This document shows, piece by piece, positions 2,472 to 57,262 of a stretch of 64,000 bases of DNA (the stretch's first letter is position 1; each line of letters starts with the position of its first letter). The DNA lies in the NCBI GenBank assembly GCA_021161255.1, contig JAGHAZ010000056.1, positions 862 through 64,861 on the forward strand. Reading direction: 5' to 3'. This DNA comes from Candidatus Bathyarchaeota archaeon (lineage in GTDB: Archaea > Thermoproteota > CALKCG01 > B24). The notes below the pieces were generated by a model. It was given only the letters and a program-made list of their open reading frames with translations, had not been told where the DNA came from and ran no database searches. The position numbers and the translations under genes were made by a program.

Positions 2472-3563
2472 ATGGGCTGGTTTCTGATAAGACCCGATGC
2501 CTTAACCGTTTTGAGGAACGAGATGGTCGTAAAGGCGTTGAACAGGTATTTCAAGGTCGTCAAGAACAAGCTTCCGGCCAAGTTTATGATCGCTAGGAGG
2601 CTGGAGGCTGGTTTTCACGAAGACGACCCATTGGATAGGCTCTGGGCTCTACACGATAAACTGACCCAAGAATACTATCGGCTCGAATCTAAGATAGACG
2701 GCGGTGAGCTTTCGTTAGACGACTTAGGAGAACCCAAGAGAAGCTATCTAGACCTGAAGGTCGAGATCGCTAAGAGGCTTCTCAGATCGTGTTGCTTCTG
2801 CGAAAGGAGATGCGGCGTCAACAGGGCCGAGGGGGAGCTTGGATACTGTAGATGTGGAGAGACCTTCCTTCTATCCTCGGCTTTCCATCACGTAGGTGAA
2901 GAGCCTGAGCTCGTACCGAGCGGAACCATATTCTCGATAGGATGCAACCTCACCTGTCTACACTGCCAGAACTGGACGATATCCCAGCACATGGAGCCTG
3001 GTGAGCCCTTGACCCCTAGGGAGCTCGCGGCCGTCGTCACCAAGCTTAGACGGGATGGCTGTAGAAACTGTAACATGGTCGGAGGTTCTCCTACACCGTG
3101 GCTACACGCGTGGCTTGAAGCGTTCAAATACGTCGAGGTTAACGTGCCTACCGTCTGGAATAGTAACAGTTACTACAGCATCGAGGCCGCTAAGCTTCTC
3201 AGAGGGTTCATAGACGTTTATCTCCTAGACTTTAAATACGGAAGAGACGAATGCGCCGTTAGGATATCCAACGCCCCCAACTACGTCGAGGTTTGCCGGA
3301 GAAATCACTTGATGGCTCTAGAGAGCGGTGAGCTCATAATACGGATACTTCTCCTACCTGAGCATATCGAATGCTGCGGCAAGCCCATACTGAAGTGGAT
3401 CAGGGAGAACCTCGGAGACTGGGTTAGGGTTAACATAATGGACCAGTATAGGCCGCATTGGAGGGCCCACGAGGTTCCCGAACTACGTAGAAGGCTTAGG
3501 CACGAGGAGTACTTGGAAGCTGTGAGCTACGCGAAGTCGATAGGGCTTCTGAACCTAGCATAG
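2472..3563 (+). CDS. radical SAM protein, PflX-like (COG1313, pyruvate formate-lyase activase homolog)
   Basis: CNLTCLHCQNW is a CxxxCxxC radical-SAM cluster motif. An extra N-terminal Cys cluster (CCFCERRCG...C) is present, as in the PflX family. Confidence 0.7.
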   Translation: MGWFLIRPDALTVLRNEMVVKALNRYFKVVKNKLPAKFMIARRLEAGFHEDDPLDRLWALHDKLTQEYYRLESKIDGGELSLDDLGEPKRSYLDLKVEIAKRLLRSCCFCERRCGVNRAEGELGYCRCGETFLLSSAFHHVGEEPELVPSGTIFSIGCNLTCLHCQNWTISQHMEPGEPLTPRELAAVVTKLRRDGCRNCNMVGGSPTPWLHAWLEAFKYVEVNVPTVWNSNSYYSIEAAKLLRGFIDVYLLDFKYGRDECAVRISNAPNYVEVCRRNHLMALESGELIIRILLLPEHIECCGKPILKWIRENLGDWVRVNIMDQYRPHWRAHEVPELRRRLRHEEYLEAVSYAKSIGLLNLA

Positions 3564-9555: not shown

Positions 9556-12500
9556 ATGTTCCAAAAGTATAATAACCTTTTCTTTCTCAATAGGTGTACG
9601 GTGTCTGAAACGGGTCGAGTCGTGAATCTGGAAAAAGCAGCTCTATTAGCATTCATCGTGATCCTAGCTTTACCGGTTATCGTATATGCGCAGGCACCGC
9701 AGCCGATAAGCGGTGCATCGGTCGTCGCGTTTGGTGACGCAGGGTACGGGGTAGCTGAGACAGACGCCGAAGGATTCTTCGAGATAACGGAGGGGTTGGG
9801 TGAAGGCGTCTACGACGTGAGGATAAGCGCCAAGGGCTACGTTTCCAAGGTGGTCGAAGACGTCGAAGTCGTAGCCGGGGAGGAGGTGGACATAGGCGAC
9901 GTATTCCTCAAACCATCTGCGGTGATAAAGGGTGTGGTGGAGACGCCTGACGGCGAGCCGGCTGCTAACGTCCCCGTGGCCCTAAAAGACAGTAGCGGCA
10001 AAGTACTTCAGCTAACCACCACGTCGAGCGACGGCTCCTTTGTCTTCGACACCGACGTGAGGAACGGGACCTACACGGTGGAGGCTTACGCGTTCATGTT
10101 CGAGGGGATGGAGTATCAAACGGTGACGATGGGCTTCACCCAGGTGGAGATCCCCGTTCCCAAGCCAGGCGCCTCCTACTTACAAGGTTACACCTCTGGG
10201 AGGGTCAAGAACGTCGAAGCGGTTCAAGGCGAGACGGTCGAGGACATAGTGATACGTCTCGACGTATCCGGTATAATATCCGGTAGGGTTACAGACGACC
10301 AGGGTAACCCCGTAGCCGATGTGCTAGTGGTAGCCTTCTCACCCAGCGGTGGTATATCCAAGGGGTTCTACGCCGTGACAGACGAGGACGGGCGGTATAG
10401 GATAGCCAACAACCTCGACACGGGCGACTATAACGTGACCCTGCTGTTCCCGAAGGGTTATGTATGGAACTTCATGAACGCTAAGAAGGTTCACGTCGTA
10501 GCAGGTGAGGAGACGGCTAACGTAGACTTCCAGCTTGAAAGGTCCGGCATAATATCCGGCGTAGTCGTATACAGCGACGATACCCCTGCCGCGAACGCGA
10601 CTGTCGTAGCGTTCTCGCAGGACGGCAAGTACTTCGGCTTTACCACCTCCGACATAGATGGGTCCTTCAGGATAGACTCAGGTCTCGGAACGGCTACCTA
10701 CCAGGTTATGGCGTTCGTAGGGACGACAGCTTTCTCCCAGCCCGTGACTGTTCAGGTAACAGCTGGCGAGGAGACCAAGGACGTTAAGCTCGTCGTGACC
10801 GGGACGGCTAAGGGAATGGCCGCCATAGAGGGCACCGTTACAGATATCGACGGTAACCCGCTCGTAGACGTCGAGGTGTCGGCTCTAGATGCGGTGACGT
10901 ACACAGACGAAGATGGAAGCTATAGACTCATCATAGCTCTTCCACAAGGCGTTACCTCCACCACCGTAACAGTAACCGCGTCTAAGAGAGGCTACGAGAC
11001 AGCCGTTAAAGAGGGGGTCACTGTGACGGCCGGGGAGACGACAAAGCCGGTGGACTTCACGTTGGAGAAGCTTAAGCTCGGCGTCATAAAGGGCCGTGTC
11101 CTCGCTAAGGCGCCTCCGCCGTCGGCTAAGAAGACGGCTTCTCTCTCGATATCGCTATCCTCGCAAATCGTGAGCATAGGAGAGTCTGTGACTATATCTG
11201 GAACCATAACTCCGAGCCTCACCGGAGAGGTCTCGATACTGGTGGCTTCAGATACTGTTTTCGAGGAGATCGCTAAGGTAAACCTCGAAGACGGAAGCTT
11301 CAGCTACAGCTTCACGCCGACCGCTAAGGGAGTCTATAGGATAAAAGTTTCATGGCCTGGGAACGACGAGTATAACCCGGCCGAATCCGAGATTCTAACC
11401 CTGACGGTGGTCAAGAAGACGGCCGAGCTTTCGATATCACTGTCCTCCTCGACCATAACGATAGGGGACTCCGTCACTCTTGAAGGTACGATAACACCCT
11501 CTGTGACGGGTAAAGTATTCATCCTTCTGACCCCGGACGGTAAATTTAAGAAGATAGCTGAGGTCGACTTGGAAAACGGCAGGTTCAACTTCACTCTGAA
11601 GCCTGAGGCCCTCGGCACCTACAGGGTTAAGGTTGTGTGGCCTGGAAACGCCGAGTATAAGCCCGTGGAATCCGATGTGTTAACTCTGACCGTGAAGAAG
11701 GTATCCCCGACGGTCGAGATATCGGTCTCTAAGACAACGGCTAACGTGGGTGAAACCGTCACCATATCAGGCTCGATATCTCCGTTTAAAGCTGAGACGG
11801 ATGTCGTGATAACCGTCACAAGCCCGTCGGGTGTCAGCGAGTACACGGTCACCTCGTCAGACGGTAGCTTCGAGTATGGCATAGAGCTTGACGCTCAAGG
11901 AACGTGGAGCGTCAAGGCTGAGGTTCCTGAAGGACCGGTCTATGAGTCGGCTGAGTCCAACGATGTCCAGATAACGGTTCAGGAGAAGAAGTGTATAATA
12001 GCTACCGTGACCTTCGGCTCTGAGGTCGCTCCGGAGGTCAACTTTCTAAGGTCCTTCAGAGACGGCTTGATCCTCACGACGTACGCCGGTAGACAGTTCT
12101 ACGTAGCCTTCGACGCCTTCTACTACTCGTGGAGCACACCTGTGGCGAAGTTCATAGAGTCCAACCCTGTATTGAAACCGGTCGTCAAAGCTTTACTGTA
12201 TCCGTTACTCGGAATATTGAAGTTCACGGCCTTAGCTAGTATGCCGCTCTTTGGACTGAACCCCGAGACCGCGGCCGTGTTAGCGGGTTTCATAGCATCC
12301 TCGCTCATAGGCGTCGTCTATGTCTCACCGGTTCTAATAGCCGTCTCGCTTCTGGCTAGGAAATACGGTAGAACGGTCAAGCCATCCATAGAGTTCGTGA
12401 AGGCCCTATGGGCTTCGGTAGCCGCCTCCCTAGTATTCATAGGTATAGGATTAGTCTTAGAAAGCGGTCTACTGTTGACGGCTGCGACCTCAGCTTACGT

Positions 12501-17210: not shown

Positions 17211-19670
17211 GTGATGCGTGTGTCTAAAGATAAGGCTACGGCTTTGATACTCTGGTTTGAGGAGCTCAGGAAAGACGATGTGCCGCTGGTCGGCGGTAAA
17301 TGCGCGAACCTCGGTGAGATGATAAATGCCGGGATACCGGTTCCACCTGGGTTTGCCGTTTCGGCGTATGCGTATAAGCGTTTTCTAGAGTTGACCGGTA
17401 TAGCGGAGAAGGTCTACACGATCATACGGGAGACCGTTAAGGACGTGAACGACCCTCAGCAGTACCAGGAGGCCTCTAAGAAGATCAGGCAGCTTATCGA
17501 GTCTACCCCGATACCCGAGGAGATCGAGAAAGCGATCAGGGAGGCCTATAGGAAGCTCAACGCTAAGCTAGGGATGGCTGAGGCGTTTGTAGCGGTCAGG
17601 TCTTCCGCCACAGCCGAGGACCTACCCGGTTCCTCGTTCGCCGGTCAGCAGGAGACGTTCTTAAACGTCAGGGGTGAGGATGACCTTATCCACTATGTGC
17701 GTAGATGCTGGTCTAGCCTATTCACGCCTAGGGCGATATTCTACAGGACGCAGAGAGGTTTCCCGCATGAGAAGGTTCTGATAAGCGTAGCCGTCCAGAA
17801 GATGGTTAACAGTAAAGCCGCAGGGGTTATGTTCACGCTCCACCCCGTTACCGGCGATAGGTCGAAGATAGTCATCGAGGCTAGCTGGGGCCTAGGTGAA
17901 GCTGTCGTCTCTGGGTCTGTGACGCCTGACAGGTTTGTCGTCGATAAGAATACGCTGGAGATTTTAAGCAAGGAGATCGCCGATAAGACGGTCGAATACA
18001 TCAGAGACCCCGAGACCGGTAAAACCATACACGCCGAGGTTCCTCCTGAACGTCGTAAGATACCCTGCTTGACAGACGAGGAGATCAAGAGGCTTGCCGA
18101 GCTTGCTAAGCGTATAGAGCAGCACTACGGCACGCCGCAGGACATAGAGTTCGCCGTAGACAAGGACCTACCGTTCCCCGAGAACGTGTTCATAGTCCAG
18201 TCTAGACCTGAAACCGTTTGGAGCGTCAAAGCCGAGGAGAAGCCCGTAGAGAAGGCTCCGGCTCCGACCGAGGAGCTTGTACCGGTCATCAAGGGTCTCC
18301 CCGCTAGCCCGGGCATATACGCCGGTAGGGTTAAGGTCGTCTTAAACCATGAAGAGGCTGCTAAGCTGATGGAGGAAGGCGACATACTCGTCACGAAGAT
18401 GACGAACCCAGACTGGGTCCCATACATGAGGATAGCTGGAGCCATAGTCACCGACGACGGAGGTATGACGTGTCACGCCGCGATAGTCTCCAGGGAGCTC
18501 GGTATACCATGTATAGTCGGGACCCGGGAGGCTACTAAGGTCCTCAAGACCGGGACCTACTATACGGTGGACGCTACCTCGGGGGTGGTCTACGAGGGTA
18601 TCGTAGAGTCGCTGGTTAAGCCTAAGCGTGAAGCCGTGGCGGCTGCTCCAGGCGCCGTAGCCGCCTTGCCGCAGTGGGCTGTCTATCCGCCCGTGACGGC
18701 TACGAAGATCTACGTGAACCTCTCTATACCCGACGTGGCGGAGAAGGTTTTCAACGAAAGCCACCCCGACGGTGTAGGCTTGTTGAGGGCGGAGCACCTG
18801 ATGCTCAGCGTCGGTAAACACCCGAGGCTCCTGATCGAGGAAGGCGGAGCAGAGAAGATGGTTAACGCCTTCGCCGAGGGCATCAGAAAGGTCGCGCAGG
18901 CATTCTTCCCGAGGCCGGTCGTCTATAGGTTCTTGGACTTCAAGCCTGACGAATTCCTCTCGCTACCTGGTGGAGAGAAGTACGAGGAGGAGGCCGGGCA
19001 CGTCGGGCCTAACCCGCTGATAGGCTATAGAGGCGCCTTCAGGTATATCAAAGAGCCTGATATATTCAGGCTTGAGTGCCGCGCTATACGGAAGGTTAGG
19101 GAAGAATATGGCTTGAAGAACGTCTGGGTCATGGTTCCGTTCGTCAGGAGGGTCGAGGAGTTCAAGCACTGCTTGAAGATAATGGAGGAGGAGGGTCTGA
19201 GGAAGGGTCCTGACTTCAAGGTCTGGATAATGGTCGAGGTTCCGAGTACGGTGCTCCTCATAGATAAGTTCATCGAGGCAGGTATCGACGGTGTGAGCTT
19301 CGGCACGAACGACTTGACGATGCTTATACTCGGGATAGACCGTGACGACGCCTCGGTTCAGGAGATATACGACGAGAGAAACCTCGCAGTACTCAGAGCC
19401 TTAAGCCACGTTATAAGGATATGCCGTGAACACGGTGTTACGACGAGCATATGCGGCCAGGCACCTTCGAACTACCCGGAGATCGTGGAGTTCCTCGTCA
19501 AGGAGGGTGTGACAAGCCTCTCGGTGAACCCTGATAAGGTCATGGAGACCAGGATGCTCGTAGCGTCTATAGAGCGGAAGGTCCTCTTGGAGAGACTGGC
19601 TAGGGTTGAAGAGCAGGGTAAGACTCAGAAACGTTTCTTCCAACCCAGGTGGGCTGAGGAGCTAGGCTAG
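17211..19670 (+). CDS. ppsA: phosphoenolpyruvate synthase (pyruvate, water dikinase)
   Basis: N-terminal ATP-grasp region, GGMTCHAAIVSRELGIPCIVG phosphohistidine motif, and a C-terminal PEP-utilising TIM-barrel domain. 819 aa. Confidence 0.9.
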   Translation: MMRVSKDKATALILWFEELRKDDVPLVGGKCANLGEMINAGIPVPPGFAVSAYAYKRFLELTGIAEKVYTIIRETVKDVNDPQQYQEASKKIRQLIESTPIPEEIEKAIREAYRKLNAKLGMAEAFVAVRSSATAEDLPGSSFAGQQETFLNVRGEDDLIHYVRRCWSSLFTPRAIFYRTQRGFPHEKVLISVAVQKMVNSKAAGVMFTLHPVTGDRSKIVIEASWGLGEAVVSGSVTPDRFVVDKNTLEILSKEIADKTVEYIRDPETGKTIHAEVPPERRKIPCLTDEEIKRLAELAKRIEQHYGTPQDIEFAVDKDLPFPENVFIVQSRPETVWSVKAEEKPVEKAPAPTEELVPVIKGLPASPGIYAGRVKVVLNHEEAAKLMEEGDILVTKMTNPDWVPYMRIAGAIVTDDGGMTCHAAIVSRELGIPCIVGTREATKVLKTGTYYTVDATSGVVYEGIVESLVKPKREAVAAAPGAVAALPQWAVYPPVTATKIYVNLSIPDVAEKVFNESHPDGVGLLRAEHLMLSVGKHPRLLIEEGGAEKMVNAFAEGIRKVAQAFFPRPVVYRFLDFKPDEFLSLPGGEKYEEEAGHVGPNPLIGYRGAFRYIKEPDIFRLECRAIRKVREEYGLKNVWVMVPFVRRVEEFKHCLKIMEEEGLRKGPDFKVWIMVEVPSTVLLIDKFIEAGIDGVSFGTNDLTMLILGIDRDDASVQEIYDERNLAVLRALSHVIRICREHGVTTSICGQAPSNYPEIVEFLVKEGVTSLSVNPDKVMETRMLVASIERKVLLERLARVEEQGKTQKRFFQPRWAEELG

Positions 19671-26742: not shown

Positions 26743-27672
26743 GTGAGACCCCAGAGTTTCGTGAAGCTTCTCGAGAGCTTCTATGTAGTTAAGCCTCTTA
26801 ATCCGTTCAAATCGCGGGTTAAATACATGACCAGTTTTAAGCTTGCTATAAACCCGTATAGAGGCTGTCCGTATAAATGTCTGTACTGCTACATATACGG
26901 CTATACTAGGCTGTCTGATATCAAGCATCCTGCTACTAGGAAACTCTTTAAAAGGAGGCTTAGACGGGATATCAAGGAATACGCTAGGCTCGGTCTTCCG
27001 AAGTACCCTGTCTATCTGTCCCCGAGCTGCGAGCCTCTACATCCCTTCCTAGAAAGTAGATATGGGAACACACTCTACGCGTTGAAGACCCTTAAAGAAG
27101 AGGGTTTCCCCGTGATCATCTCGACCAAGAATCCGTCTCAGCTTCTTAAAGAGGAGTACCTGGAGGCTTTGGATAAGGACTCGACCACTATACATATCTC
27201 GATACCTTTCCTAGACAACCGTTTCGAACCCAATACCTCGTTACCTATAGGCAGGATCTGGGCCGCATCTAAACTGGTAAAGGAGGGGTTAAACGTTTAC
27301 ATTAGGGTTGAACCTGTAATACCGTCCTACGGTGCTGTAGCAGGGCAGTCGAAGATGGAGCTTAAGACGATAGTTAAAGAGGCTAGGAAGGCGGGTGTGT
27401 ACGATATAATCTCCAAGTGTCTTCTACTCTCGATAGGGGTTAGCAAGGTTTACCCCAGCTTCTATAAGGAGCTTAAGCCTTATTATCTCAGGCATGGCTA
27501 CTGCGACGGAACATACTACATGCTAGACTACAATACAAGGATCAAGTTACTTATGCCGCTATACGAGGCTTGTAGAAGAAACAACGTCCGGCTCTGGACG
27601 CAGGTGAACGACCTACCTTTCTCCGAAGCTCCATCCTGCAACGAGTTCGAAGGTCTTATGTATCTAAGATGA
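26743..27672 (+). CDS. radical SAM protein, SPL/DNA-repair-photolyase-like family (COG1533-like)
   Basis: AINPYRGCPYKCLYCY is the CxxxxCxxC cluster motif used by the SplB-like group. GTG start 19 nt after the KaiC-like stop. Confidence 0.55.
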   Translation: MRPQSFVKLLESFYVVKPLNPFKSRVKYMTSFKLAINPYRGCPYKCLYCYIYGYTRLSDIKHPATRKLFKRRLRRDIKEYARLGLPKYPVYLSPSCEPLHPFLESRYGNTLYALKTLKEEGFPVIISTKNPSQLLKEEYLEALDKDSTTIHISIPFLDNRFEPNTSLPIGRIWAASKLVKEGLNVYIRVEPVIPSYGAVAGQSKMELKTIVKEARKAGVYDIISKCLLLSIGVSKVYPSFYKELKPYYLRHGYCDGTYYMLDYNTRIKLLMPLYEACRRNNVRLWTQVNDLPFSEAPSCNEFEGLMYLR

Positions 27673-27683
27673 CGACTTCATAG

Positions 27684-28064
<381 letters not shown>

Positions 28065-28086
28065 GTCATGCCGGGAGCCCCTTCAC

Positions 28087-28330
28087 TCTAGGAGCTTGGT
28101 GAGGGCTTCCACCAGCTTCTCCTTCTCCCGGTATATTTCCGCTTCTCTCGATTTTATGAGGAGGTTTATGAGGTCTACTATGGGCTTGACGAGGCTTGAA
28201 GTTATCAGGTAGTCTAGGAGTTCGTGTCTCAGAGCTTGAACCGCCCTATCCTCATCAGCCTCGTATATGCGGATCGTTCTGCCCTCAACCTCGCCGGAGA
28301 GACCTGCCGAGCGTCTTAGGCTCAGACTTC
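28087..28330 (-). pseudogene. start-less ORF fragment, possibly PaREP1-related
   Basis: An open frame of about 80 codons with no start codon (...ALRHELLDYLITSSLVKPIVDLINLL...KEKLVEALTKLLE*). It is not in the ORF track because it lacks an initiation codon. Confidence 0.2.
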
Positions 28331-28546
28331 ATGGTCGCGGGCGGGTTCGCCCTATACTTCAACCCAGCCAGCCGAACAGCATATCTTGAGAGACCTCTCA
28401 ATACTGGAGAATACCATTAAGTAAACGGACAGCATAATGGATATGCTTATAAGTTTACCGCAAGAAAGCTCCCCCATCTTTAGCGGGGGGTAGGTTACAG
28501 CTAAAAAGATAAGGGAGCTTGGGTTGATTAATGATGGGGTGTAGCC

Positions 28547-28925
28547 GTGTCTGAGACGCGCGTTAAGCTTATGGAGAGGTTTTTAGAGGAGGGTAAGCGG
28601 CTGGTCGACGAGGATCCTGTTCAAGCTTCCGAGAAGCTCTATAAGGCTGCTGAGAAGGCTGTTAAGCAGCTCGCCCGCTCCCTCGGGGTGGAGGATGTGC
28701 TTAAGCTCGTCGAGGAGAGGGGGTAGGTGGACCGTGACAGACCTGGAGAAGGTTGTTAGGAGGCTCAGGAGCCTAGAGCCGGGCGTGGTAGGCTGGTGGG
28801 ATAACGCAAACTACCTACACGTGTGGGGTTTCCACGAAGCCAAGCTCGACAGCGAGTCCGTGAAGATTAGATTGCCGAGCGTGGAGAAAATCGTTAAGCT
28901 TGCCCTACTCCACACCACCACGTAA
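28547..28925 (+). pseudogene. PaREP1-family gene with an internal frameshift
   Basis: Frame A reads VSETRVKLMERFLEEGKRLVDEDPVQASEKLYKAAEKAVKQLARSLGVEDVLKLVEERG*. Frame B continues RWTVTDLEKVVRRL...WWDNANYLHVWGFHEAKLD. Together these give the PaREP1 signature (KLYKAAE...A..LHV.GFHE), split near 28728. Confidence 0.5.
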
Positions 28926-29439
28926 GACGGATGGCGAGAGGGTTGTCGATACATGCTTCATAGAGCTCAAATTCGTTCAAGGAGCCGGATGCGGGCAATC
29001 ACTGAAGCCATCCATAGAGGTTTTAACGTATACCTAGTTATGCTCGTATATCTTCCAGGTCGGAGGATTAAGATATTAGTTTATAAGGCATTTGGTTAAG
29101 CGGGGGAGGCGAAGATTTTAATGACACCCTACTCCCAACATCTCGGCTTCCAGCATCTTGGGCACCTCCCTCACCCAGTACGGCAGCTTCTCTAGAATAG
29201 TGGGCTTTTCTCGTTGACGTCTTTCTGCGGTAGGCCTAGATAGTCTACCCGGTTTGTTCAATCTCTTGTGGTGTACCCTGCCGGTGGAAGGAGACGCTCA
29301 GCTCGACGGCTGTCGACTGGGACGACGTTCGAGCGCTCTAGACCCTGGGGGGCGGAGCGCGTGCCGGCCGCCATATAGCGGCCGGGAGACTGGAGCGTAC
29401 GTGGTCCACACCCTCTCCCTATCAAGCTTGATAAGCTCG

Positions 29440-29759
29440 TCAGGTGAAAGCCCAGACCACTCGACAAACCAAGCCAACGCCTTCAAGTAGAGCTTAACCG
29501 TGCCGACAGAACCCCTCCTCCAAAGCCTCCTAAGAAACCTATCCACCGAGCCATACTCAGACCTCTTAAGAGCCCGGTCAATCTTCAGCACATCGACGTA
29601 AAACGGCCTACCCATACCTGTCGAGCAATAGGGGATGGTAGAATAAAGAGTTACCCTCATTAGGGGGTGGGTATGCCGGCCGTAACCCTCCTTCTGTTTT
29701 AGGTGGGATTCGACTAACGCGGCATACCGGAGCCTCGGGCGGAGGCTCATAGGCTCCAT
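29440..29759 (-). mobile_element. orphan N-terminal (SAM-like, core-binding) fragment of a tyrosine integrase
   Basis: TVKLYLKALAWFVEWSGLSPDELIKLDRERV is a phage-integrase N-terminal SAM-like motif, and no catalytic domain follows. The ORF nominally runs to 29298 through a GC-rich non-protein-like block. This is the pattern expected for the int(N) half of an SSV-type partitioned integrase. Confidence 0.35.
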
Positions 29760-29779
29760 TCGCCTTGACGCCCGCAGGT

Positions 29780-29990
29780 CGGCAGTTTCACCCTCACACC
29801 CCGGTATAGTCAGCGGTTGAGCCGCATATCATCCACATCCACCGGGGGGAGGTGTCTTTTCTGCGCCGGAGCCGAGGCTCTCGCCTCCCACGTCGCCGTG
29901 GTGCGGCTCCGCCTGCGTGGAGGAGTTTCCTCCAGACACCTGGGTCAAACCCAGATGTCCGGAAACCCACCCACCGGCTTACCCACCCCG
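29780..29990 (-). ncRNA. GC-rich structured RNA candidate (unknown class) downstream of an archaeal TATA box
   Basis: About 210 nt at roughly 68% GC, well above the flanking regions. It holds several perfect hairpins (ctggg-tttga-cccag, tggagg-agttt-cctcca, ccgg-aaacccaccca-ccgg, ggagccg...cggctcc). No ORF covers it on the minus strand. A TATA box sits at 30012-30021. Confidence 0.25.
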
Positions 29991-30011
29991 TTATCGATAG
30001 GTGTCGCTGGG

Positions 30012-30021
30012 TTATATAAAG
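30012..30021 (-). promoter_or_regulatory. archaeal TATA box (CTTTATATAA on the minus strand)
   Basis: Near-consensus TTTAWATA, directly downstream of the PfpI stop and about 25 nt upstream of the GC-rich block. Confidence 0.4.
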
Positions 30022-30061
30022 ATAGAGAAATTGGAAAAATAGGGTTTGGAGAAGTATGTGG

Positions 30062-30613
30062 CTACTTCTTGAGTAGCTTGATGAACTCTCTCATGAAAGC
30101 CGGTAGGTCTGGCCATGCCCTGCTTGTCACGAGGTTTCCGTCTACGACTACCTCCTGGTCGAGGTATACTCCACCCGCGGATTCGATGTCCGGCTTGAGA
30201 ACTCCATATGCCGTGAGTCTCCTACCCTTGACAAGCCCATACGCTGTTAGGACTAGGGGGCCGTGGCATATGGCGGCTACGGGTTTACCGGTATCGAAGA
30301 AATGTCTCACTATAGGCTCAAGCTCGGCATATGTCCTTATATACTCAGGCGCCCTCCCGCCTGGAATTATTAAGCCGTCGTAATCCTCAGGTTTAACCTC
30401 TTTAAAACTTAGGTCGACCCAGATAAATCTGTAGCCTGGCTTCTCGGTGTATGTTTCCACTCCGGTTTCAAAATCGTGGACGACCGTGAACAAAGGCTTC
30501 TTACTCGGAGCCGCCACGTGTACCTCAAACCCCTCCTCCTTCAGCCTCCAGTAGGGGTAAAATATCTCCTGAGCCTCGACCGCGTCACCCACCACTACTA
30601 GGACTTTAACCAA
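30062..30613 (-). CDS. pfpI: DJ-1/PfpI-family intracellular protease/deglycase
   Basis: AAICHGPLVL nucleophile-elbow motif. 183 aa. Confidence 0.85.
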   Translation of the reverse strand: MVKVLVVVGDAVEAQEIFYPYWRLKEEGFEVHVAAPSKKPLFTVVHDFETGVETYTEKPGYRFIWVDLSFKEVKPEDYDGLIIPGGRAPEYIRTYAELEPIVRHFFDTGKPVAAICHGPLVLTAYGLVKGRRLTAYGVLKPDIESAGGVYLDQEVVVDGNLVTSRAWPDLPAFMREFIKLLKK

Positions 30614-35295: not shown

Positions 35296-35559
35296 CTAAA
35301 CGAGCTCTAGGGTCTTCTGGATGGCTGAAAACCACCTGAGATAGGAGTTTAAAGCCGCCCTGAAAGCGGTTAAATCTTTGGCTTTAAACGTCAGAACTAG
35401 CTTATCCTCAACCCTATCTATAGTCACCGCTACCCTCTTAGACGGTAGGCTCAGCGTTTCAGGCCTCAAAGCCTTAAGAATAGGCTCCAATAGACCAGGT
35501 TTAACCTCTAGCTTGACCGAGCATTCGACCCTAAGAGACCGCTTACTGGGCTCTATCAA
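35296..35559 (-). CDS. pcc1: KEOPS complex subunit Pcc1-like
   Basis: 87 aa with a DLTAFRAALNSYLRWFSAIQKTLE Pcc1-type C-terminal motif. Sits in the expected superoperon position next to L37Ae. Confidence 0.5.
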   Translation of the reverse strand: MIEPSKRSLRVECSVKLEVKPGLLEPILKALRPETLSLPSKRVAVTIDRVEDKLVLTFKAKDLTAFRAALNSYLRWFSAIQKTLELV

Positions 35560-35813
35560 CCTCTGATCCTCGCAGCCACCCTACCCATCTCGGTGGTAGG
35601 CTGGTAGGCTCCTCCGGCGAACTTATAGCCGCACTTGAAGCACTTCCACACCCCTACACTCACTCGCTTAACCCTACGCATGCCGCACTTAGGGCAGACG
35701 TAGACGCTTTTAGCAGCCCGCATAACCCGAGCATACCGTTTCCTAAGAGGAGCCCCGTATTTCGCCTTAAGACTGCCTACCCCCGCGTTCTTAGGACCCG
35801 GCATCCAGGCCAC
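35556..35813 (-). CDS. rpl37ae: 50S ribosomal protein L37Ae
   Basis: CPKCG...CFKCG zinc ribbon and an AKYGAPLRKR N-terminus. Confidence 0.85.
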   Translation of the reverse strand: MAWMPGPKNAGVGSLKAKYGAPLRKRYARVMRAAKSVYVCPKCGMRRVKRVSVGVWKCFKCGYKFAGGAYQPTTEMGRVAARIRG

Positions 35814-36621
35814 TCTCCCTCCTGACGATTTCTATGAGCTTGGGAGCGGTTTTACACGCTATGGAAACCACCTCGAATACCTCGTCGACGGATAAGCTTC
35901 CGTCGAGCTTCTGAATAGCGCATACCCTCCCCAGCTCGTCGACGGATATACACACTCTATTATCTAAACTTAACTCCTCTTCGAGGTTGGGGTCGACTAT
36001 GAACGGCCCGTCGTCCGGCTTAGCGAGGGTTACGGTCACAGGTGTATGCAACACGGGTAGCGGTATATACTCTTCTTCGTATCTAAGCTCCCCCTCGTCT
36101 ACGCTGAACTTCCTGATCCTAGTATTCAGTAGGGCAAGTATCGAAGCCAACGCGGATGCGTCTATGAAGTTTCCATCGTGGTCTAAGACGTATATGTCTA
36201 GGAAGACCACGAAGACCCTCCTACCCGGCTCTATACATAGGCTCTTCAAATCTATAGTCTTGGTCTCCCTCAAGGTTCGGTCGATAACCCTAGCAAGCTC
36301 TATAGCCGTCTCGTCAGGTGGTCCTGGTTCAAAAGCAGGTGACGCAAGGGGGACAAGCTCCGCGTTAACCGTTAGGACACCTTGGTCTGGAACGTCTGAA
36401 AACGGCTCACCTATCCCGACCTTAACTCCGGCTAGGACTTTCGTGGAGCCTATCGAGACCTGAGCCGAGCCGTTAGCCCTACTTATTAAGCCGCATTTAA
36501 CGTCTATCGGCCTGTAGTCTAATAGTCCTCTGTCGTCTATCCTAGAGCCCTCTCTAAGCATGCTTATTATCCTATTCCTCACAAGTTGGGATACCACTCT
36601 AAACGTCTTCATCCTCCTCAC
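35791..36621 (-). CDS. rrp42: exosome complex component Rrp42 (RNase PH-like, non-catalytic)
   Basis: RNase PH fold. Lies downstream of Rrp41 in the conserved order. Confidence 0.8.
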
Positions 36622-37318
36622 CTTTAATGGAGAGATACCTCTTCCTAAGCGTCTCCCTCTGAATCCTATTTATCTCCATACACCCCTTTACCGCCAGGTC
36701 GAAGGCCTGCTTAAACTCCTCCTCTGTAAGCACTCCGTTAAGCTGTAGAAGTACGACCTTGTTAAAACTAGGCATTATTGCGACAGGCATATCGGCCTCC
36801 GCCGCCTCATCCTCCTCATCGTTAAGGTCCAATATTATATGACCGTTATACTTACCCACCGCCACGGCCGATATAAGGTCCCTAATCGGGATACCGGCGT
36901 TAGCCAAGGCGAGGGAACACGCATTTATACTCGCGCACCTCGTCCCGCCGTCTGCTTCAAGAACTTCGATGAAAACGTCTATGGAGGTTCTCGGAAATCT
37001 CTCGAGAAATATCGTCTGGGATAATGCATCTTTTATGACCTTAGATAACTCGATTTCTCTACGCGACGGGTTTGGGCTCTTTCGTTCTCTAGTCGAGAAC
37101 GGAGCCATATGATACCTACACCTGACCACGGCGGCCTCCGGAGAAGCTTTATGTCTGGGGTGAAGCTCCCTAGGGCCGTAGACGGCTACTATGACCTTTG
37201 TATTTCCCTGCTCTACGTATGCAGAGCCGTCTGCCCTATCTAAAACGTCCACGGCCATCTTTATCGGCCTAAGCTGGTCCGGAAGCCTACCGTCTGGTCT
37301 CACAAACTCGCTAGACAT
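36599..37318 (-). CDS. rrp41: exosome complex exonuclease Rrp41 (RNase PH)
   Basis: RPDGR...LRPI and GTRCASINA catalytic-region motifs. Confidence 0.85.
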
Positions 37319-37994
37319 CTAAACCCCGACTCCTCCTTAAAAACTTCATAATTCTATCTGTTAAACCTGTTGTATGAGCCTCCCGCTCGATCTTCTCTAT
37401 AGCCTGGGCGACGAGCTCCTCGTCTTTAACGGTCTCGCCGACTATGTGGATCAAACCGTTTTTACCTATGGTTATCTGGCACCTCCCCTCCTTCTTAAGG
37501 AGGTTTATCATAGAGCCCTTCCTACCTATGAGCCTCGGTATCTTCGAAGGCGTCAATTCAACGACCATTCCCTTGGTTATCTTACCGAGGCCATGTCCCT
37601 GAACCGTTAGAACAGGGTTCCTAGTTCTGTCGAACTCGACTATCTGGGCTATTATCATGTCGCCTGGAGCTAAGGCGTCTCTGAGGGAGTTCCTAAGCGG
37701 GTTAAACCTACCCTTAAAGTAGTCTGAAGCGTTTAGGATAGCCGTATAAGGCGACCGTATATCTATCGTCCAGCTGAAGGTCCCCACGTCTATTACCTTA
37801 CCGATGACGAGGTCTCCTATTTTAGGCTCATAGACCCCGTGTAAGGCGATCACAGATACGACCTTCTTATCTATGGACAAGAGCCCTATCTTGGACGAGT
37901 AAAACCTCTTACCCTGTCTGAAGACGTTCAAACCAGCCTGATAATCGCCCTCTACGAGAAACTCTCCCGGCAAAACGATCCTACGTTCATTCAT
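37311..37994 (-). CDS. rrp4: exosome RNA-binding cap subunit Rrp4 (S1 + KH)
   Basis: S1 then KH-like ([11 protein letters not shown]) arrangement. 227 aa. Confidence 0.8.
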
Positions 37995-38006
37995 CTACCT
38001 ATCCTC

Positions 38007-38696
38007 CTACTTGAGTATCTTAGCTTGGGCGGAGCCCTTTGTAAACCTGCTGAGTTTATCTAGAAACTCCGCCTGAACCCCGGCGGGCATATCTATCAGA
38101 GCCGCCCAGGAGCCGTCGCTAAGCCACTCTTCCCTCTCAAGATAACCGTAGCTTCTGATGAAGCTATACATCTTAGGCGCGTATTGAGGCGGCACCTTAA
38201 TAGCCAGCTTAACCCTCTCGACCCGGAGCGGAAGTATAGGCCTTAAGGCTTCTATAACCTTAACCGCCTGGGCATCCGCGTCTTTAAACGGGTCTATCGA
38301 AACCCTGGCCTGTTGCATAGCCTGCTCGACCCTGATAGCCGGTATCGGAAGCCCGGTTCTAGGGTCTATACAGTTTTTAGTTATGAACGCTATTATTTGC
38401 TTCCTCTTCTCCTCGATAAGCCTCCTCCTCTGCTCGGCGGTTATCTGAAGCTCACCCTGTTTGAGAATCGTCTCCGCGATCTTCTTGATATCCGTCGTCC
38501 CGAAGCACTTTCTAAGCTTCTCCGACGAAGCCCTCAGCCCCTTCCGAGCATCGGTATAAACCTCGTAGTCCGCTAGAACGTTCTCGACATCCTTTAGTTT
38601 GCCAAGCCTATAGTTCAACGCCGGGTCAGGCTTGACCAGTATCTCGAACTTCTCACCGGATATATGTATCCTAGCTAGAACATAGCGTTCAGGCAT
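38007..38696 (-). CDS. sdo1: ribosome maturation protein SBDS/Sdo1
   Basis: ARIHISGEKFEILVKPD FYSH-domain start. 229 aa. Confidence 0.85.
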   Translation of the reverse strand: MPERYVLARIHISGEKFEILVKPDPALNYRLGKLKDVENVLADYEVYTDARKGLRASSEKLRKCFGTTDIKKIAETILKQGELQITAEQRRRLIEEKRKQIIAFITKNCIDPRTGLPIPAIRVEQAMQQARVSIDPFKDADAQAVKVIEALRPILPLRVERVKLAIKVPPQYAPKMYSFIRSYGYLEREEWLSDGSWAALIDMPAGVQAEFLDKLSRFTKGSAQAKILK

Positions 38697-38710
38697 AATT
38701 ATTCCCCATA

Positions 38711-39430
38711 CTACACGTTTTCAAGGTATTTAGCAACCTCCTCATCGGGTAAAACCCTGAAACGCTTAGTCTCCACAGGTATGACAGCTACTTTAAACCG
38801 TTTACCCCCATCTTTGCCACCGCTAGCCCTGACTATAGCCCTGAGGGCGGTCACTATGGCCTCCTCGACCGTCAGATCGGGATTATAGTTTTCCTCGAAA
38901 AACTCTATAGCCGCTTCGCTTCCCATACCTAGGGCCGCCGCCTTATAGCTCCAATAGTCTCCCCCGGGTAGTGTAGCGAAGAGTCTAGCCCCGTATCGGT
39001 CTACTCCTCCGAAGAGCATGGCTACGCCGAACGGTCTGACACCTGCGTGCTGAGTGTATAACTGTTTAATGTCGGCTATACGTTTAGCTAGGACCTCTAT
39101 GTCTATCGGCTCGTCGTACATGAGTCTATTACTCTGGGCGTATATCCTAGCCTGGTCTACTAGAACCCTAGCGTCCGGTCCGAAGCCGGCTATAGCTACA
39201 CCCACGTGGTCATCTATCTGGAATATCTTCCACGTGAAGTTATCGTCCAGAAGCCTAGAAGGAGGTCTCTCCTCTGCGGCTAGAATCGAGCAACTTTTAC
39301 AGGCTAGACCCACGATCGAAGCTCCTCTCTTAACAGCCTCTACGGCATACTCTACTTGGTAGAGCCTACCCTCGGGTGAGAATATCGTAATAACCCTATC
39401 ATATGCACCTGGTGCTGTAAACATATCCAC
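38711..39430 (-). CDS. psmA: proteasome subunit alpha
   Basis: YDRVITIFSPEGRLYQVEYA N-terminal signature. Confidence 0.9.
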   Translation of the reverse strand: MDMFTAPGAYDRVITIFSPEGRLYQVEYAVEAVKRGASIVGLACKSCSILAAEERPPSRLLDDNFTWKIFQIDDHVGVAIAGFGPDARVLVDQARIYAQSNRLMYDEPIDIEVLAKRIADIKQLYTQHAGVRPFGVAMLFGGVDRYGARLFATLPGGDYWSYKAAALGMGSEAAIEFFEENYNPDLTVEEAIVTALRAIVRASGGKDGGKRFKVAVIPVETKRFRVLPDEEVAKYLENV

Positions 39431-39562
39431 ACACTCCTTTACCTTATCTCATAAATTTTAGATAAACCAAGCCTTAAGCATTTCACATGTCTCGGCTGAA
39501 GCCCGTAGACTTCACCTTAAGGGGGAGGGGTATACTCTTAAAAAGTTTATGATTTCTACCCT

Positions 39563-39886
39563 TCAGTTTTTGAGAAATTTTCTTCTAAGCCTCTTCAAGG
39601 TTCCTGAAACACCTAAAACCTGTATGATAACTTTCTTTCCATCGACCTCTCTTAAGAGGCTTAAGGCCGCCCTTAGATACGGTAGAGAGCGGTGGTTCAC
39701 AGATATTATAGCCACCCCTTGGTCTTCGTTAAACTCTATAAGCCTCAAACCAGCTTTGCTGAGACCGTACTCTCCATAGAGGCGGAGGTAAATGTCGATT
39801 ACGCTGGACCATAGGCTCGTTTTAAAAACACGACCTCCCATAAGCTTCAGGGCGAGGTATCTCCGCTTAAACTCCCTCCTAGACAA
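39563..39886 (-). CDS. rnp2: RNase P protein component Pop5 (Rnp2)
   Basis: KRRYLALKL start and a VSGTLKRL C-terminal motif of the Pop5/Rpp14 family. Sits in the superoperon position. Confidence 0.6.
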   Translation of the reverse strand: MSRREFKRRYLALKLMGGRVFKTSLWSSVIDIYLRLYGEYGLSKAGLRLIEFNEDQGVAIISVNHRSLPYLRAALSLLREVDGKKVIIQVLGVSGTLKRLRRKFLKN

Positions 39887-39892
39887 GGATAG

Positions 39893-40507
39893 CTACACCT
39901 CGAGTATTCTCACACCGTCTGGAAGACCCATCCTTCTAGACTCGCAGAGCTCCAATAGTTTAGCCGGGTTTTCAGAGACCCATCCATAGCATTCGTGAGG
40001 GTTAACGTCGACGAGAGCTAAGTGCTGAGGTAGCTCTAGAGGTGCGGTAAGTTCATGCGGCTCCGAAGCCCAGCTTGAGACGGTCACAGGTATGTCCAGC
40101 TTCCTAAGTAGTCTCACGTTACGTCTAATGTGTTTAAGGAGACGCGCCATCTCGATTCCTTCGACGTACATTAGCGGCTTAAGGTTAAGCTCGAAAAACT
40201 TTCCTGATAACGATAAAACCCTGACATCGGATAGGTTCATCGTGAACGGTCTACTCTGGAAGACTAGGTCTACCCGGGTTCTCAAGGCTCTTCTAAATTC
40301 TCGTCTAGAGCTGCAGGAGACGGCTATGACCGTAAACCTCCTCCTAAGCCTAGCTAGGAGACTGGGCTGGGCTTCTTCTGGTTTAAGGTCTATCCTCCAA
40401 ACTACTCGGAGACCGTCAGGGGATACGGCTTCTGGAGGAGATGCTCTGACGTCTTGAATAGTCAGAGCTACCGTGGAGAATCCCAGCTCTTTAGCTGTAT
40501 CCAACAT
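39893..40507 (-). CDS. rnp3: RNase P protein component Rpp30 (Rnp3)
   Basis: About 200-aa TIM-barrel-sized protein adjacent to Pop5 with an SSWASEP...LALVDVNPH pattern. The assignment rests on position and weak motifs. Confidence 0.5.
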   Translation of the reverse strand: MLDTAKELGFSTVALTIQDVRASPPEAVSPDGLRVVWRIDLKPEEAQPSLLARLRRRFTVIAVSCSSRREFRRALRTRVDLVFQSRPFTMNLSDVRVLSLSGKFFELNLKPLMYVEGIEMARLLKHIRRNVRLLRKLDIPVTVSSWASEPHELTAPLELPQHLALVDVNPHECYGWVSENPAKLLELCESRRMGLPDGVRILEV

Positions 40508-40567
40508 GTGCTTAACCGTATCGTCGTTATAGACGAGATGAAGGTCGTAGAACGTTCTCTTGAAGAG

Positions 40568-41002
40568 CTATCCCCCCTCAGGCTCTAAGAGGCTCGGAAG
40601 CTTTTTGAAGACATGGGGTTTAAGCTTTAGCCTGACGCAGATCGGGTCGCTATAGCCGGCTCTTAAACGTCCAAGATATGCCTCCTGCTTGTCGAACCTG
40701 AGATAAAGAATCTTATGCCGCCCTATATGCATGTCCAGGTTCCTCCTAAGGGACACTTTATCCTCCCAGCTCATCCGCTCTAGAAGGCTTAGGAGGAACT
40801 CCTCACTAGCGTTTTCGACGTTAACCCTGTAGACTATTATCGGGTTCCCATAGTGTCCCTCAAGCTTCTCCCTGATGTATACGACGTTTCCCTTAAACCT
40901 CTCGGGCAGGATGTTCTCGATAGCGGCCTTAACCCTATCAGGGTCTTCGGTAGCATGAGCGTAAGCCTCTATCTCCACAAGGTCCCTGGGATTTCTAGGC
41001 AT
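40568..41002 (-). CDS. conserved archaeal protein, possibly the COG1325/UPF0201 RNA-binding family
   Basis: 144 aa. Its position in the superoperon matches where a predicted RNA-binding partner is often found. Confidence 0.3.
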   Translation of the reverse strand: MPRNPRDLVEIEAYAHATEDPDRVKAAIENILPERFKGNVVYIREKLEGHYGNPIIVYRVNVENASEEFLLSLLERMSWEDKVSLRRNLDMHIGRHKILYLRFDKQEAYLGRLRAGYSDPICVRLKLKPHVFKKLPSLLEPEGG

Positions 41003-55978: not shown

Positions 55979-57262
55979 ATGGGTCAGGCGTCTATGCGGG
56001 TTAAGATGTCTGGGTTCAAGGGGCTTATGAAGGTGGAAGATGCCCTAGCTAGGCTTCTTGAAGCCATCAGGGGTTATAGGCTCGACGTCGAGGAGGTTCC
56101 CGTGGAGGAGGAGGCTGTCGGTAGGGTTTGCGCCGAGGATTTGAAGGCGCCGGTGGACGTGCCTCCGTTCGACAGGTCCGCGGTAGACGGGTACGCCGTC
56201 AGATACCTCGACGTCTTAAGCGCGTCTGAGAGCAGCCCGGTCGAGCTTAGGATAGTAGGCGTCTCCAAGACCGGGTCGAGACCGGATACGCTACCTGAGG
56301 TTAAGCCGGGAGAAGCCGTCGAAATATATACGGGAGCCCCCTTGCCTAGGGGTGCAGACTCGGTCGTGATGGTCGAGTACACGAAGAGGGAGGAGGATAG
56401 GCTATGGGTCTACAGGCCCGTGGCCTACATGCAGAACGTCTCCAAGAGAGGTGAAGACTTCTCGGCCGGAGAACCGGTCGTCTCCGTAGGGGTTAAGCTT
56501 AAGCCCTGGCACGTCGGGGCTTTGGCGTCCCTAGGTGTAACGTCCGTGAAGGTCTACCGTAGGCCTACCGTCGCCGTAGCCTCGACCGGCTCCGAGCTTA
56601 AGCCCCTAGGCTCCAAGATATCCCCAGGTGAGGTCGTAGACTCGACCAGGCCGATGATCAAGGCGTTTTTGAGGAACCTAGGCTGCGACGTGTTGGACCT
56701 AGGGATACTCGAGGACGACCCGGCGGTCATCTCGGAAGCCGTTTCGAAGGGCTTGAAAACCTCAGACCTCATGGTTCTCACAGGCGGAACGAGCCTAGGT
56801 TTGAAAGACGCTACACCGGATGGCTTAAGCATGGTCGAGGGTTCTAGACTGATCTTCCACGGCGTCCGTATGAGACCTGGGAAGCCCACGGGAGCCTACC
56901 TGGTAAACGGTAAACCGGTGTTCATGCTCTCAGGTTTCCCAGTCGCCGCTTTCGTAGGGTTCATGGTCTTCGTGGAGCCGGCTATACGTGGTATGATGAA
57001 GTGTAGACCAGACCCGCAGCCCGTAGTGAAGGCTCAGGTCGCGAGGAGAGTGGCTAAGCCTCCCGGCGTCAGAGCCTACGTCAGGGTGAGGGTCTACTCG
57101 AGAGACGGTGTTCTATACGCCGAGCCGCTTAGGCTCACGGGTTCGGGGATAATCTCGACCCTGACGAGGGGGAACGGCTTATTGATCCTCAGAGAGGAGG
57201 CTGAAGGGGTCGAGGAGGGGGAGGAGGTCGAGGTTCTACTCACCCAGCCGGTGGAGGTGTAG
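55979..57262 (+). CDS. moeA: molybdopterin molybdenumtransferase MoeA
   Basis: PFDRSAVDGYA, GAPLPRGADSVVMVEYT, and a GGTSLGxKD MogA-like domain. Confidence 0.8.
   Translation: MGQASMRVKMSGFKGLMKVEDALARLLEAIRGYRLDVEEVPVEEEAVGRVCAEDLKAPVDVPPFDRSAVDGYAVRYLDVLSASESSPVELRIVGVSKTGSRPDTLPEVKPGEAVEIYTGAPLPRGADSVVMVEYTKREEDRLWVYRPVAYMQNVSKRGEDFSAGEPVVSVGVKLKPWHVGALASLGVTSVKVYRRPTVAVASTGSELKPLGSKISPGEVVDSTRPMIKAFLRNLGCDVLDLGILEDDPAVISEAVSKGLKTSDLMVLTGGTSLGLKDATPDGLSMVEGSRLIFHGVRMRPGKPTGAYLVNGKPVFMLSGFPVAAFVGFMVFVEPAIRGMMKCRPDPQPVVKAQVARRVAKPPGVRAYVRVRVYSRDGVLYAEPLRLTGSGIISTLTRGNGLLILREEAEGVEEGEEVEVLLTQPVEV

Follow-up and report, generated by a model that had tools for sequence, protein, structure and literature searches.

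An RNase P RNA gene of a Bathyarchaeota archaeon beside an integrase remnant, with a probable element attachment site at its 3′ end

Introduction

Some tyrosine integrases insert their elements at the 3′ ends of genes for tRNA or tmRNA, as in bacterial P4-type islands at ssrA. Among the archaeal enzymes, integrases of the pNOB8 type stay intact on integration. RNase P RNA of type T is a form without the specificity domain, and this minimal type was reportedly described by Lai et al. in PNAS in 2010 for Pyrobaculum, Caldivirga, and Vulcanisaeta. For SSV-type (suicidal) archaeal tyrosine integrases, the att site is located inside the int open reading frame and integration splits the gene (PMC7253208).

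Here we describe a locus in which the remnant of a tyrosine integrase gene lies directly behind a gene for RNase P RNA. The whole stretch of DNA that was analyzed, 64 kb in length, is referred to as the window; its proteins exactly match a Candidatus Bathyarchaeota MAG (MCD6444676.1), and Bathyarchaeota B24 is among its close relatives. As reconstructed from this locus and its homologs, the arrangement is like the tRNA- and tmRNA-targeting systems in that the integrase gene adjoins attL, the predicted att core consists of a stable RNA's 3′ end, which the element would bring in anew, a partial direct repeat is found on the far side at some loci (L143, L071, and L036), and the cargo is rich in defense and toxin-antitoxin genes. 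It is unlike them in its probable target, the RNase P RNA gene, and the integrases associated with this site belong to two Bathyarchaeia/Thermoprotei clades that are mutually only 24% identical. These are archaeal tyrosine integrases, as are those of the SSV type, but their genes, which encode about 400 amino acids, are intact when integrated next to the RNA. In the full-text literature searched, no paper was found that reports integrases targeting RNase P RNA genes, which is not proof of novelty, and we regard the observation as a modestly novel variant of a known mechanism.

Identity and extent of the RNA

In a scan of the whole window, there was a single Rfam hit at gathering level. This was RF00373 (RNaseP_arch), which scored 195.5 bits at minus-strand positions 29671-29982 (cut-off 84, E 1e-56), in an untruncated alignment that covers model positions 1-288 of 288. 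A preliminary description of the locus had proposed that the minus strand encodes a structured ncRNA preceded by a TATA box of its own, and this much holds. It had also left the RNA as an uncharacterised sRNA that was not assignable to RNase P RNA, and neither point survives the full-length match, in which CR-I to CR-V were all aligned. We are highly confident that the GC-rich block at 29989..29664 (minus strand) is a chromosomal RNase P RNA gene of archaeal type A from Bathyarchaeota. The RNA is an ordinary RF00373 member and in itself already known.

The gene appears to be slightly longer than the model. P1 runs 7 bp past it, with GGGGUGG at 29989-29983 pairing with CCACCCC at 29670-29664, and this extended P1 is also formed in the minimum free energy fold, where GGGGUGGGUA pairs with UACCCACCCC. 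Because of this extension, the RNA is predicted to be about 326 nt in length (29664..29989, minus strand), made up of the Rfam core (29671-29982) and the additional 7-bp P1 strand at each end. In 100-nt windows across 29750-29999 the GC content was 0.62-0.66, compared to 0.39 and 0.49 in the flanks (30000-30099 and 29550-29649, respectively), and the block had a minimum free energy of -178.9 kcal/mol (z = -7.4 vs. shuffles), in agreement with the GC-rich, hairpin-dense block first reported. That block had been drawn to end at 29780; the RNA runs to about 29664 (29671 by Rfam), and the interval originally noted contains only its 5′ two-thirds.

By our own reading of the RF00373 alignment, the conserved regions follow one another in order as GAGGAAACUCC (CR-I), AGAAAAGACAC (CR-II/III region), GGGUGAAAC (CR-IV), and ACAGAAGGAGGGUUAC (CR-V). 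CR-I (GAGGAAACUCCUCC; 29919..29932, minus strand, placed by the consensus alignment) contains the 5′ strand of the P4 pseudoknot (AACUCCUCC; 29927-29919, minus strand), and CR-V (29682..29697, minus strand) contains its 3′ strand (29691-29684, minus strand). The partner motifs had seemed to be missing because the true CR-V, at 29697-29682, is outside the interval first considered, with CR-IV and CR-V at or beyond its edge. Two strings had been likened to CR-V and to helix 8 of SRP RNA, respectively, and both CCGGCTTAC (29974-29982) and GTCCGGAAAC (29957-29966) exist, on the plus strand. The transcribed strand reads GUAAGCCGG, the 5′ strand of P1/P2, and GUUUCCGGAC, the 5′ strand of P3, so neither motif assignment can be kept. 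Motifs read on the wrong strand, together with an interval that stopped short of CR-V, are the reason that the RNase P identity had been dropped.

The helix-8-like appearance of GTCCGGAAAC was the basis for considering SRP (7S) RNA, or another known structured RNA. This string belongs to the strand that is not transcribed, and when both strands of 29400-30300 were compared permissively with Rfam (E up to 1), the RNase P clan was the only one matched. An Rfam scan had been proposed in the preliminary description, and it gave the RNase P RNA match and no SRP match even at E up to 1; an SRP identity is thus already refuted and its probability is effectively negligible.

Nothing essential differs between the RNA in the window and RF00373 (clan CL00002), which share CR-I to CR-V, the P4 pseudoknot, and both domains. 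The P3 hairpin is somewhat long owing to an insertion relative to the model, CR-I reads GAGGAAACUCC where the consensus has ...AAAGUCC, and P1 is longer by the 7 bp given above. Model positions 60-200 all aligned and no large deletion relative to the model was present, meaning that the specificity domain is there, and on this overall extent the RNA is placed in type A rather than type T or M. Like type T, it is an RNase P RNA from the TACK group of archaea, with PaREP1-family genes nearby as in Thermoproteales, but it is not of type T because the specificity domain is present.

Genes for two RNase P protein subunits, the predicted trans-acting partners of the RNA, are located about 10 kb from the RNA gene in an exosome/proteasome cluster. 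These are Pop5/Rpp14 (39563..39886, minus strand; PF01900, E 1.3e-17) and Rpp30 (39893..40507, minus strand; PF01876, E 7.8e-17). The exosome-type superoperon that contains them (35296-41002, minus strand) also encodes Pcc1, L37Ae-like and Rrp42/41/4-like ORFs, SBDS, proteasome alpha, and a PF01877 RNA-binding protein, with a subset of these ORFs checked against Pfam. The RNA would be transcribed from the TATA box at 30020-30013, fold into both canonical domains (catalytic and specificity), P4 pseudoknot included, assemble with Pop5, Rpp30, and other subunits, and cut the 5′ leaders off pre-tRNAs.

Conservation of the RNA structure

In order to examine structure across homologs, an alignment of 12 sequences was used, comprising the window, four loci with related integrases or synteny (L006, L009, L010, and L012), and seven metagenome loci, each with an Rfam match of its own at 180-212 bits. 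RNAalifold predicted 80 pairs, of which 47, extended P1 included, were compensatory with changes on both sides. Within the extended P1, columns 7/350 were CG in six sequences and UA in five, and columns 11/346 were UA in seven and CG in four.

The P4 helix was tested on its own because the pseudoknot is absent from the nested model. Eight P4 pairs are possible in the window, and one of these positions is variable among 94 distinct RNAs, with G-C in 54, A-U in 24, and U-A in 11, the last being the pair in the window. One of these three pairs is thus found in 89/94 RNAs, and the position is paired in 90/94 relative to a shuffle mean of 57, a value reached by none of 2000 shuffles. P4 therefore covaries, and the conservation of structure in related genomes anticipated in the preliminary description is borne out.

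Candidate promoter

The TATA box reported upstream of the RNA, CTTTATATAA on the minus strand, is present at 30021..30012. Read as an octamer (30013..30020, minus strand), it is centered about 27 nt upstream of the RNA, with 23 nt between the last TATA base and the first base of P1, and it is a candidate promoter. It is identical in L001 and L006, two close relatives of the window, and across six loci TTAT does not vary at the equivalent place in the alignment. The octamer itself (TTTATATA) occurs twice in 64 kb vs. 1.87 expected, i.e., it is not rarer than chance, and its weight is derived from position and conservation rather than from frequency. On these features of the sequence, the box at 30020-30013 may well function as the promoter of the RNA gene.

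Integrase remnant downstream of the RNA gene

The ORF behind the RNA had been described as an integrase fragment, and this was confirmed. From the ATG at 29615, the deduced protein is 49% identical (E 2e-13) to residues 1-69 of an intact 400-aa integrase (P0003), and the homology stops at 29409, which defines a tyrosine integrase remnant of 69 codons (29409..29615, minus strand). The mechanical ORF, 29759-29298, is longer at both ends. Its ATG at 29759, at which the GC-rich block had been thought to end, is inside the RNA gene and represents a spurious extension, and after the remnant it continues through unrelated sequence to the stop at 29298. By itself, the 105-aa ORF had no match in Pfam, PHROG, NCBIfam, or PDB sequences, and a first homology search with it returned two near-identical fragments only. 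It was recognized as an integrase only because of a longer copy in L006, which continues, frameshifted, into box-I-like and later catalytic-domain sequence. A frame-corrected composite of the L006 copy had a weak match to PF00589 and was up to 62-66% identical to intact integrases of about 400 aa. These intact homologs carry PF00589 with invariant R155, H277, R280, H308, and Y317. The catalytic motif R..K..HxxR..H/W..Y is absent from the ORF in the window, which holds residues 1-69 only, and this N-terminal extent together with the lack of a Pfam match identifies it as a fragment.

Identity between the window and L006 is 96% for the remnant and 88% for the flanks, a difference that is expected of recently shared mobile DNA. 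In L006, a 134-nt deletion at 3297-3320 took the T-rich tract and the integrase start, leaving the 3′ end of the RNA fused to about integrase codon 33.

Between the RNA and the remnant is an element-derived junction (29616..29663, minus strand) with a motif conserved directly after the RNA. It contains GAGGGTAAC (29658-29650, minus strand), the conserved junction motif, followed by TCTTTATTC (29649-29641, minus strand), a T-rich TATA-like box that is probably both the integrase promoter and a de facto terminator for the RNA. The pattern GAGG(T)GGGTAAC followed by TTTA(T/A)AT was found directly after the RNA in the window and in L009, L010, L012, L013, and L014, and it is conserved though the RNAs of those loci are only about 65-70% identical. 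With its position about 28 nt before the integrase ATG, the TATA-like box could serve as an element-borne promoter for a leaderless integrase mRNA.

These features bear on the suggestion that a mobile element carries the block, either as an sRNA not characterized before or as a long, structured riboregulatory leader to the integrase fragment. The RNA does have structure and a TATA box of its own, and an integrase fragment follows it on the same strand, with the mechanical ORF running from inside the RNA into the integrase frame. The full-length RNase P RNA match and the covariation already refute this suggestion. In addition, intact integrases begin after the RNA and not within it, the integrase has a conserved TATA-like box of its own, and among 120 sampled loci with the RNA 3′-end motif only about four integrases or remnants are downstream, with more than 100 homologous RNA genes followed by no integrase. 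We consider an sRNA or leader scarcely credible, and the RNA is treated in what follows as that of RNase P.

Where the integrase homology stops, a segment of 70% GC begins exactly (29298-29410). It includes a perfect 8-bp hairpin at 29364-29385 (CCGGCCGC-TATATG-GCGGCCGG), matched neither an Rfam family nor a tRNA, occurs only once in the window, and is possibly the other GC-rich block mentioned in the preliminary description.

Chromosomal setting of the RNA gene

The gene order in the window is FAD oxidase, DJ-1/PfpI, RNA, and this order is kept in L001 (99.6% identical) and in L006/L007 (~88% identical). On the far side, the window, L001, and L006/L007 all have radical-SAM, KaiC, and YchF genes. 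The stretch between the RNA and the radical-SAM gene had different content in every genome compared. Conserved flanking genes with a variable stretch between them place the RNA gene on the chromosome, at the border of a variable segment. An exact look-up of the PfpI protein, which has a TTG start, returned no match, and neighbors with ATG starts were matched; in L006 the PfpI gene (2362-2914) is frameshifted.

The preliminary description had the RNA carried on the element, which is contradicted by this host synteny of FAD oxidase, PfpI, and RNA shared with the ~88%-identical relative. A more specific form of the idea, that the RNase P RNA gene is mobile-element cargo and an element-borne second copy, is very unlikely. 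The RNA-integrase pair does recur in many genomes with differing upstream neighbors, and the count of rnpB genes rests on this window, leaving room for a second rnpB elsewhere in the genome. These upstream neighbors, however, are directly adjacent core host genes, including a 23S rRNA gene 126 nt away in L012, and the adjacency to PfpI is syntenic in the 88%-identical relative. Furthermore, the integrase is absent from most RNase P genes of the type found in the window, and the P4 pair of CR-I and CR-V covaries between the 5′ part of the RNA and the att region. Two further points against cargo, from the integrase clades and from the repeats, are given below with those data, and we keep to a chromosomal RNA gene.

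The variable segment in the window is decayed. A PaREP1/PaREP8-family gene at 28547-28925 (plus strand) is split by a frameshift into ORFs of 59 and 76 aa (Pfam E 7.5e-11 and 2e-11, respectively), and this pseudogene is part of the segment between the RNA and radical-SAM genes. A weak match to the C/D-box sRNA-like family sn3060 was seen at 28955-29008 (minus strand; 25.6 bits vs. a cut-off of 45, E 0.015) and may be due to chance. Three near-identical metagenome contigs end or diverge within window positions 28410-29599: L003 ends at 28410, L004 ends at 28654, and L001 switches at 29599 to an unrelated convergent gene of 432 aa without a Pfam match. Contig ends around the element remnant point to strain-level heterogeneity or assembly breaks. 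L001 was considered as an empty site and rejected; the first 65 nt behind its RNA are still element-type junction sequence, with divergence beginning only after them, which makes it a deletion variant rather than a clean empty site. Elsewhere in the window, two segments of about 90 nt recur ~1260 nt apart (56111-56384 and 57374-57641; 73-89% identity) and look like tandem paralogous genes.

Recurrence of the RNA-integrase arrangement

RNase P RNA, for which an nhmmer profile of alignment A3 served as one of the search profiles, was found directly upstream of the integrases related to the remnant (clade A), on the same strand, at all eight loci, and the upstream host genes differ among them. 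Full-length RNase P RNA precedes the integrase in L009 (62-nt gap), L010 (194-nt gap), L012 (170-nt gap, with the 23S rRNA just upstream of the RNA), L138, L141, and L142; the contigs of L013 and L014 begin inside the 3′ end of the RNA, ahead of the integrase. More distant integrases (43-50% identity) had no upstream RNase P RNA in any of seven cases. The fact that intact int genes occur when integrated means that the fragment in the window is a product of decay and not of partition, and the SSV-type split-integrase model (Int(N)/Int(C)), which the earlier term "integrase fragment" suggests, was rejected on these intact genes.

A second clade (B) shows the same arrangement in L061, L089/L143, and L026. 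Clade-B elements have a different sequence directly after the RNA, and the 271 homologs of this clade are named Bathyarchaeia or MCG where a name is given. The upstream host synteny of L143, which carries clade B, is that of L010 and L142, which carry clade A, indicating that two integrase clades use the same site. That two unrelated-looking clades stand behind the same upstream host order (L010/L142 vs. L143) is also at odds with the RNA being element cargo.

A metagenome scan with the RNA 3′-end motif returned at least 120 loci, most of them plain RNase P genes without an integrase. In related RNase P genes that lack the integrase, homology is lost exactly at the 3′ end of the RNA, and it is exactly there that homology switches between related empty sites and element-specific sequence.

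Attachment-site repeats and delimited elements

The 3′-terminal ~34 nt of the RNA (29664..29697, minus strand) correspond to sequence that is duplicated as attL/attR in other genomes and are a putative attB equivalent. The clearest case is L143, a contig of 139.7 kb in which the RNA (9808-10129) is followed by a clade-B integrase, small ORFs, two TIR-domain genes, and then a partial copy of the RNA at 18646-18681, which reads ACTAAAGACGGGTTACGGCCAACACGCCAGCC vs. ACAAAAGGCGGGTTACGGCCAACACGCCAGCCC in the RNA and is followed by TTTTT. The repeat is 34 nt with a 25-nt exact core and its copies are 8.55 kb apart, so that the 3′ end of the RNA and the partial copy delimit a complete integrated element of 8.55 kb. 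Two proteins encoded at 12900-15419 of L143 contain TIR effector domains of the CAP12/Pycsar type, one fused to a DnaJ-type zinc finger, and are probably anti-virus defense cargo. L071 has a full RNA and, 1.5 kb downstream, 46 nt that repeat its 3′ end exactly, and in L036 a 30-nt exact repeat is located 424 nt downstream. Isolated 3′ fragments of the RNA, 40-85 nt in length and joined to unrelated DNA, were found in L050, L053, L130, and L139. That only the last 30-46 nt of the RNA are duplicated on the far side of insertions is the other point against an element-borne RNA gene.

Recurrent adjacency and att repeats together indicate that the 3′ end of the RNA gene behaves as an integration site in the manner of a tRNA gene, and we consider it likely that the RNase P RNA gene's last ~35 nt form a chromosomal attachment site for tyrosine-integrase elements. 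Clade A would use the same att core. Searches with blastn-short and with 3-mismatch patterns found no second att copy in the 64-kb window, and no attR was found in about 10 kb of flank searched in L009, L010, and L012; as there is no second att copy, the evidence for clade A consists of recurrent adjacency and not of a delimited element. Among viral contigs there were no relatives of the clade-A integrase and no RNase P 3′-end motif, so that neither a free circular form of the element nor an attP came to light. The possibility that the true att site is a tRNA, or part of one, was considered and dismissed, with none detected by ARAGORN in the window or the loci and none by permissive Rfam search at 27600-29700.

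The lack of an attR in the window or in the clade-A flanks searched, and of a free element in viral contigs, would fit an integrase that is a coincidental or domesticated neighbor, such as a Xer-like host recombinase, next to an RNA gene that is not an integration site. Several observations make this unlikely: close relatives differ in whether they have the integrase, lack it, or have it in decayed form, the DNA that follows it varies, resembles cargo, and is rich in defense genes (MmeI-type R-M, toxin-antitoxin, TIR), two genomes with flanks of 88% identity share a remnant of 96% identity, and clear attL/attR repeats are seen in L143, L071, and L036. Under the preferred reading, that of an attachment site at the RNA 3′ end, a clade-A-type element would once have integrated at the RNA gene in the window and re-supplied the RNA 3′ end, with its integrase gene beginning 48 nt after the RNA. 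It would then have decayed to 69 integrase codons and junk (the PaREP1 pseudogene and similar), with loss of the distal att copy, and the remnant is accordingly best described as a presumed former element with its distal end (attR) deleted. A broader generalization, that at least two tyrosine-integrase clades (24% identical) insert defense-rich elements of ~8 kb or more at RNase P RNA and that the window is a decayed example, is one that we favor only slightly.

The element in L009 carries an MmeI-type R-M enzyme and toxin-antitoxin pairs. Eight independent metagenome contigs (L024, L030, L031, L055, L100, L110, L114, and L129) start about 90-125 nt before the RNA 3′ end, and such shared starts inside the RNA would arise where an assembler breaks at the edge of a repeated (att) segment or from occupied/empty polymorphism. 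L099 (1563 and 3836, motif oriented plus) and L087 (2881 and 3648) each contain two RNase P 3′-end copies and had no full RNase P RNA at Rfam gathering level; the second copy in L099 has CR-IV upstream yet fails the model. Tandem or nested insertion, or disruption of the gene, may explain these copies.

Implications

For the RNA, the outcome is a clean negative, in that a candidate novel sRNA or leader is housekeeping RNase P RNA. The reading of its 3′ end as an att site would account for the frequent metagenome assembly breaks inside the RNase P RNA gene and, if true, RNase P RNA joins tRNA and tmRNA as stable-RNA targets of integration. Pipelines that delimit integrated elements in archaea usually restrict themselves to tRNA genes. 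If genes for RNase P RNA are also att sites in Bathyarchaeia/Thermoprotei, islands of R-M, toxin-antitoxin, and TIR genes are missed by such tRNA-only pipelines, and the attB/integrase pair could become a genetic tool for this uncultivated lineage.
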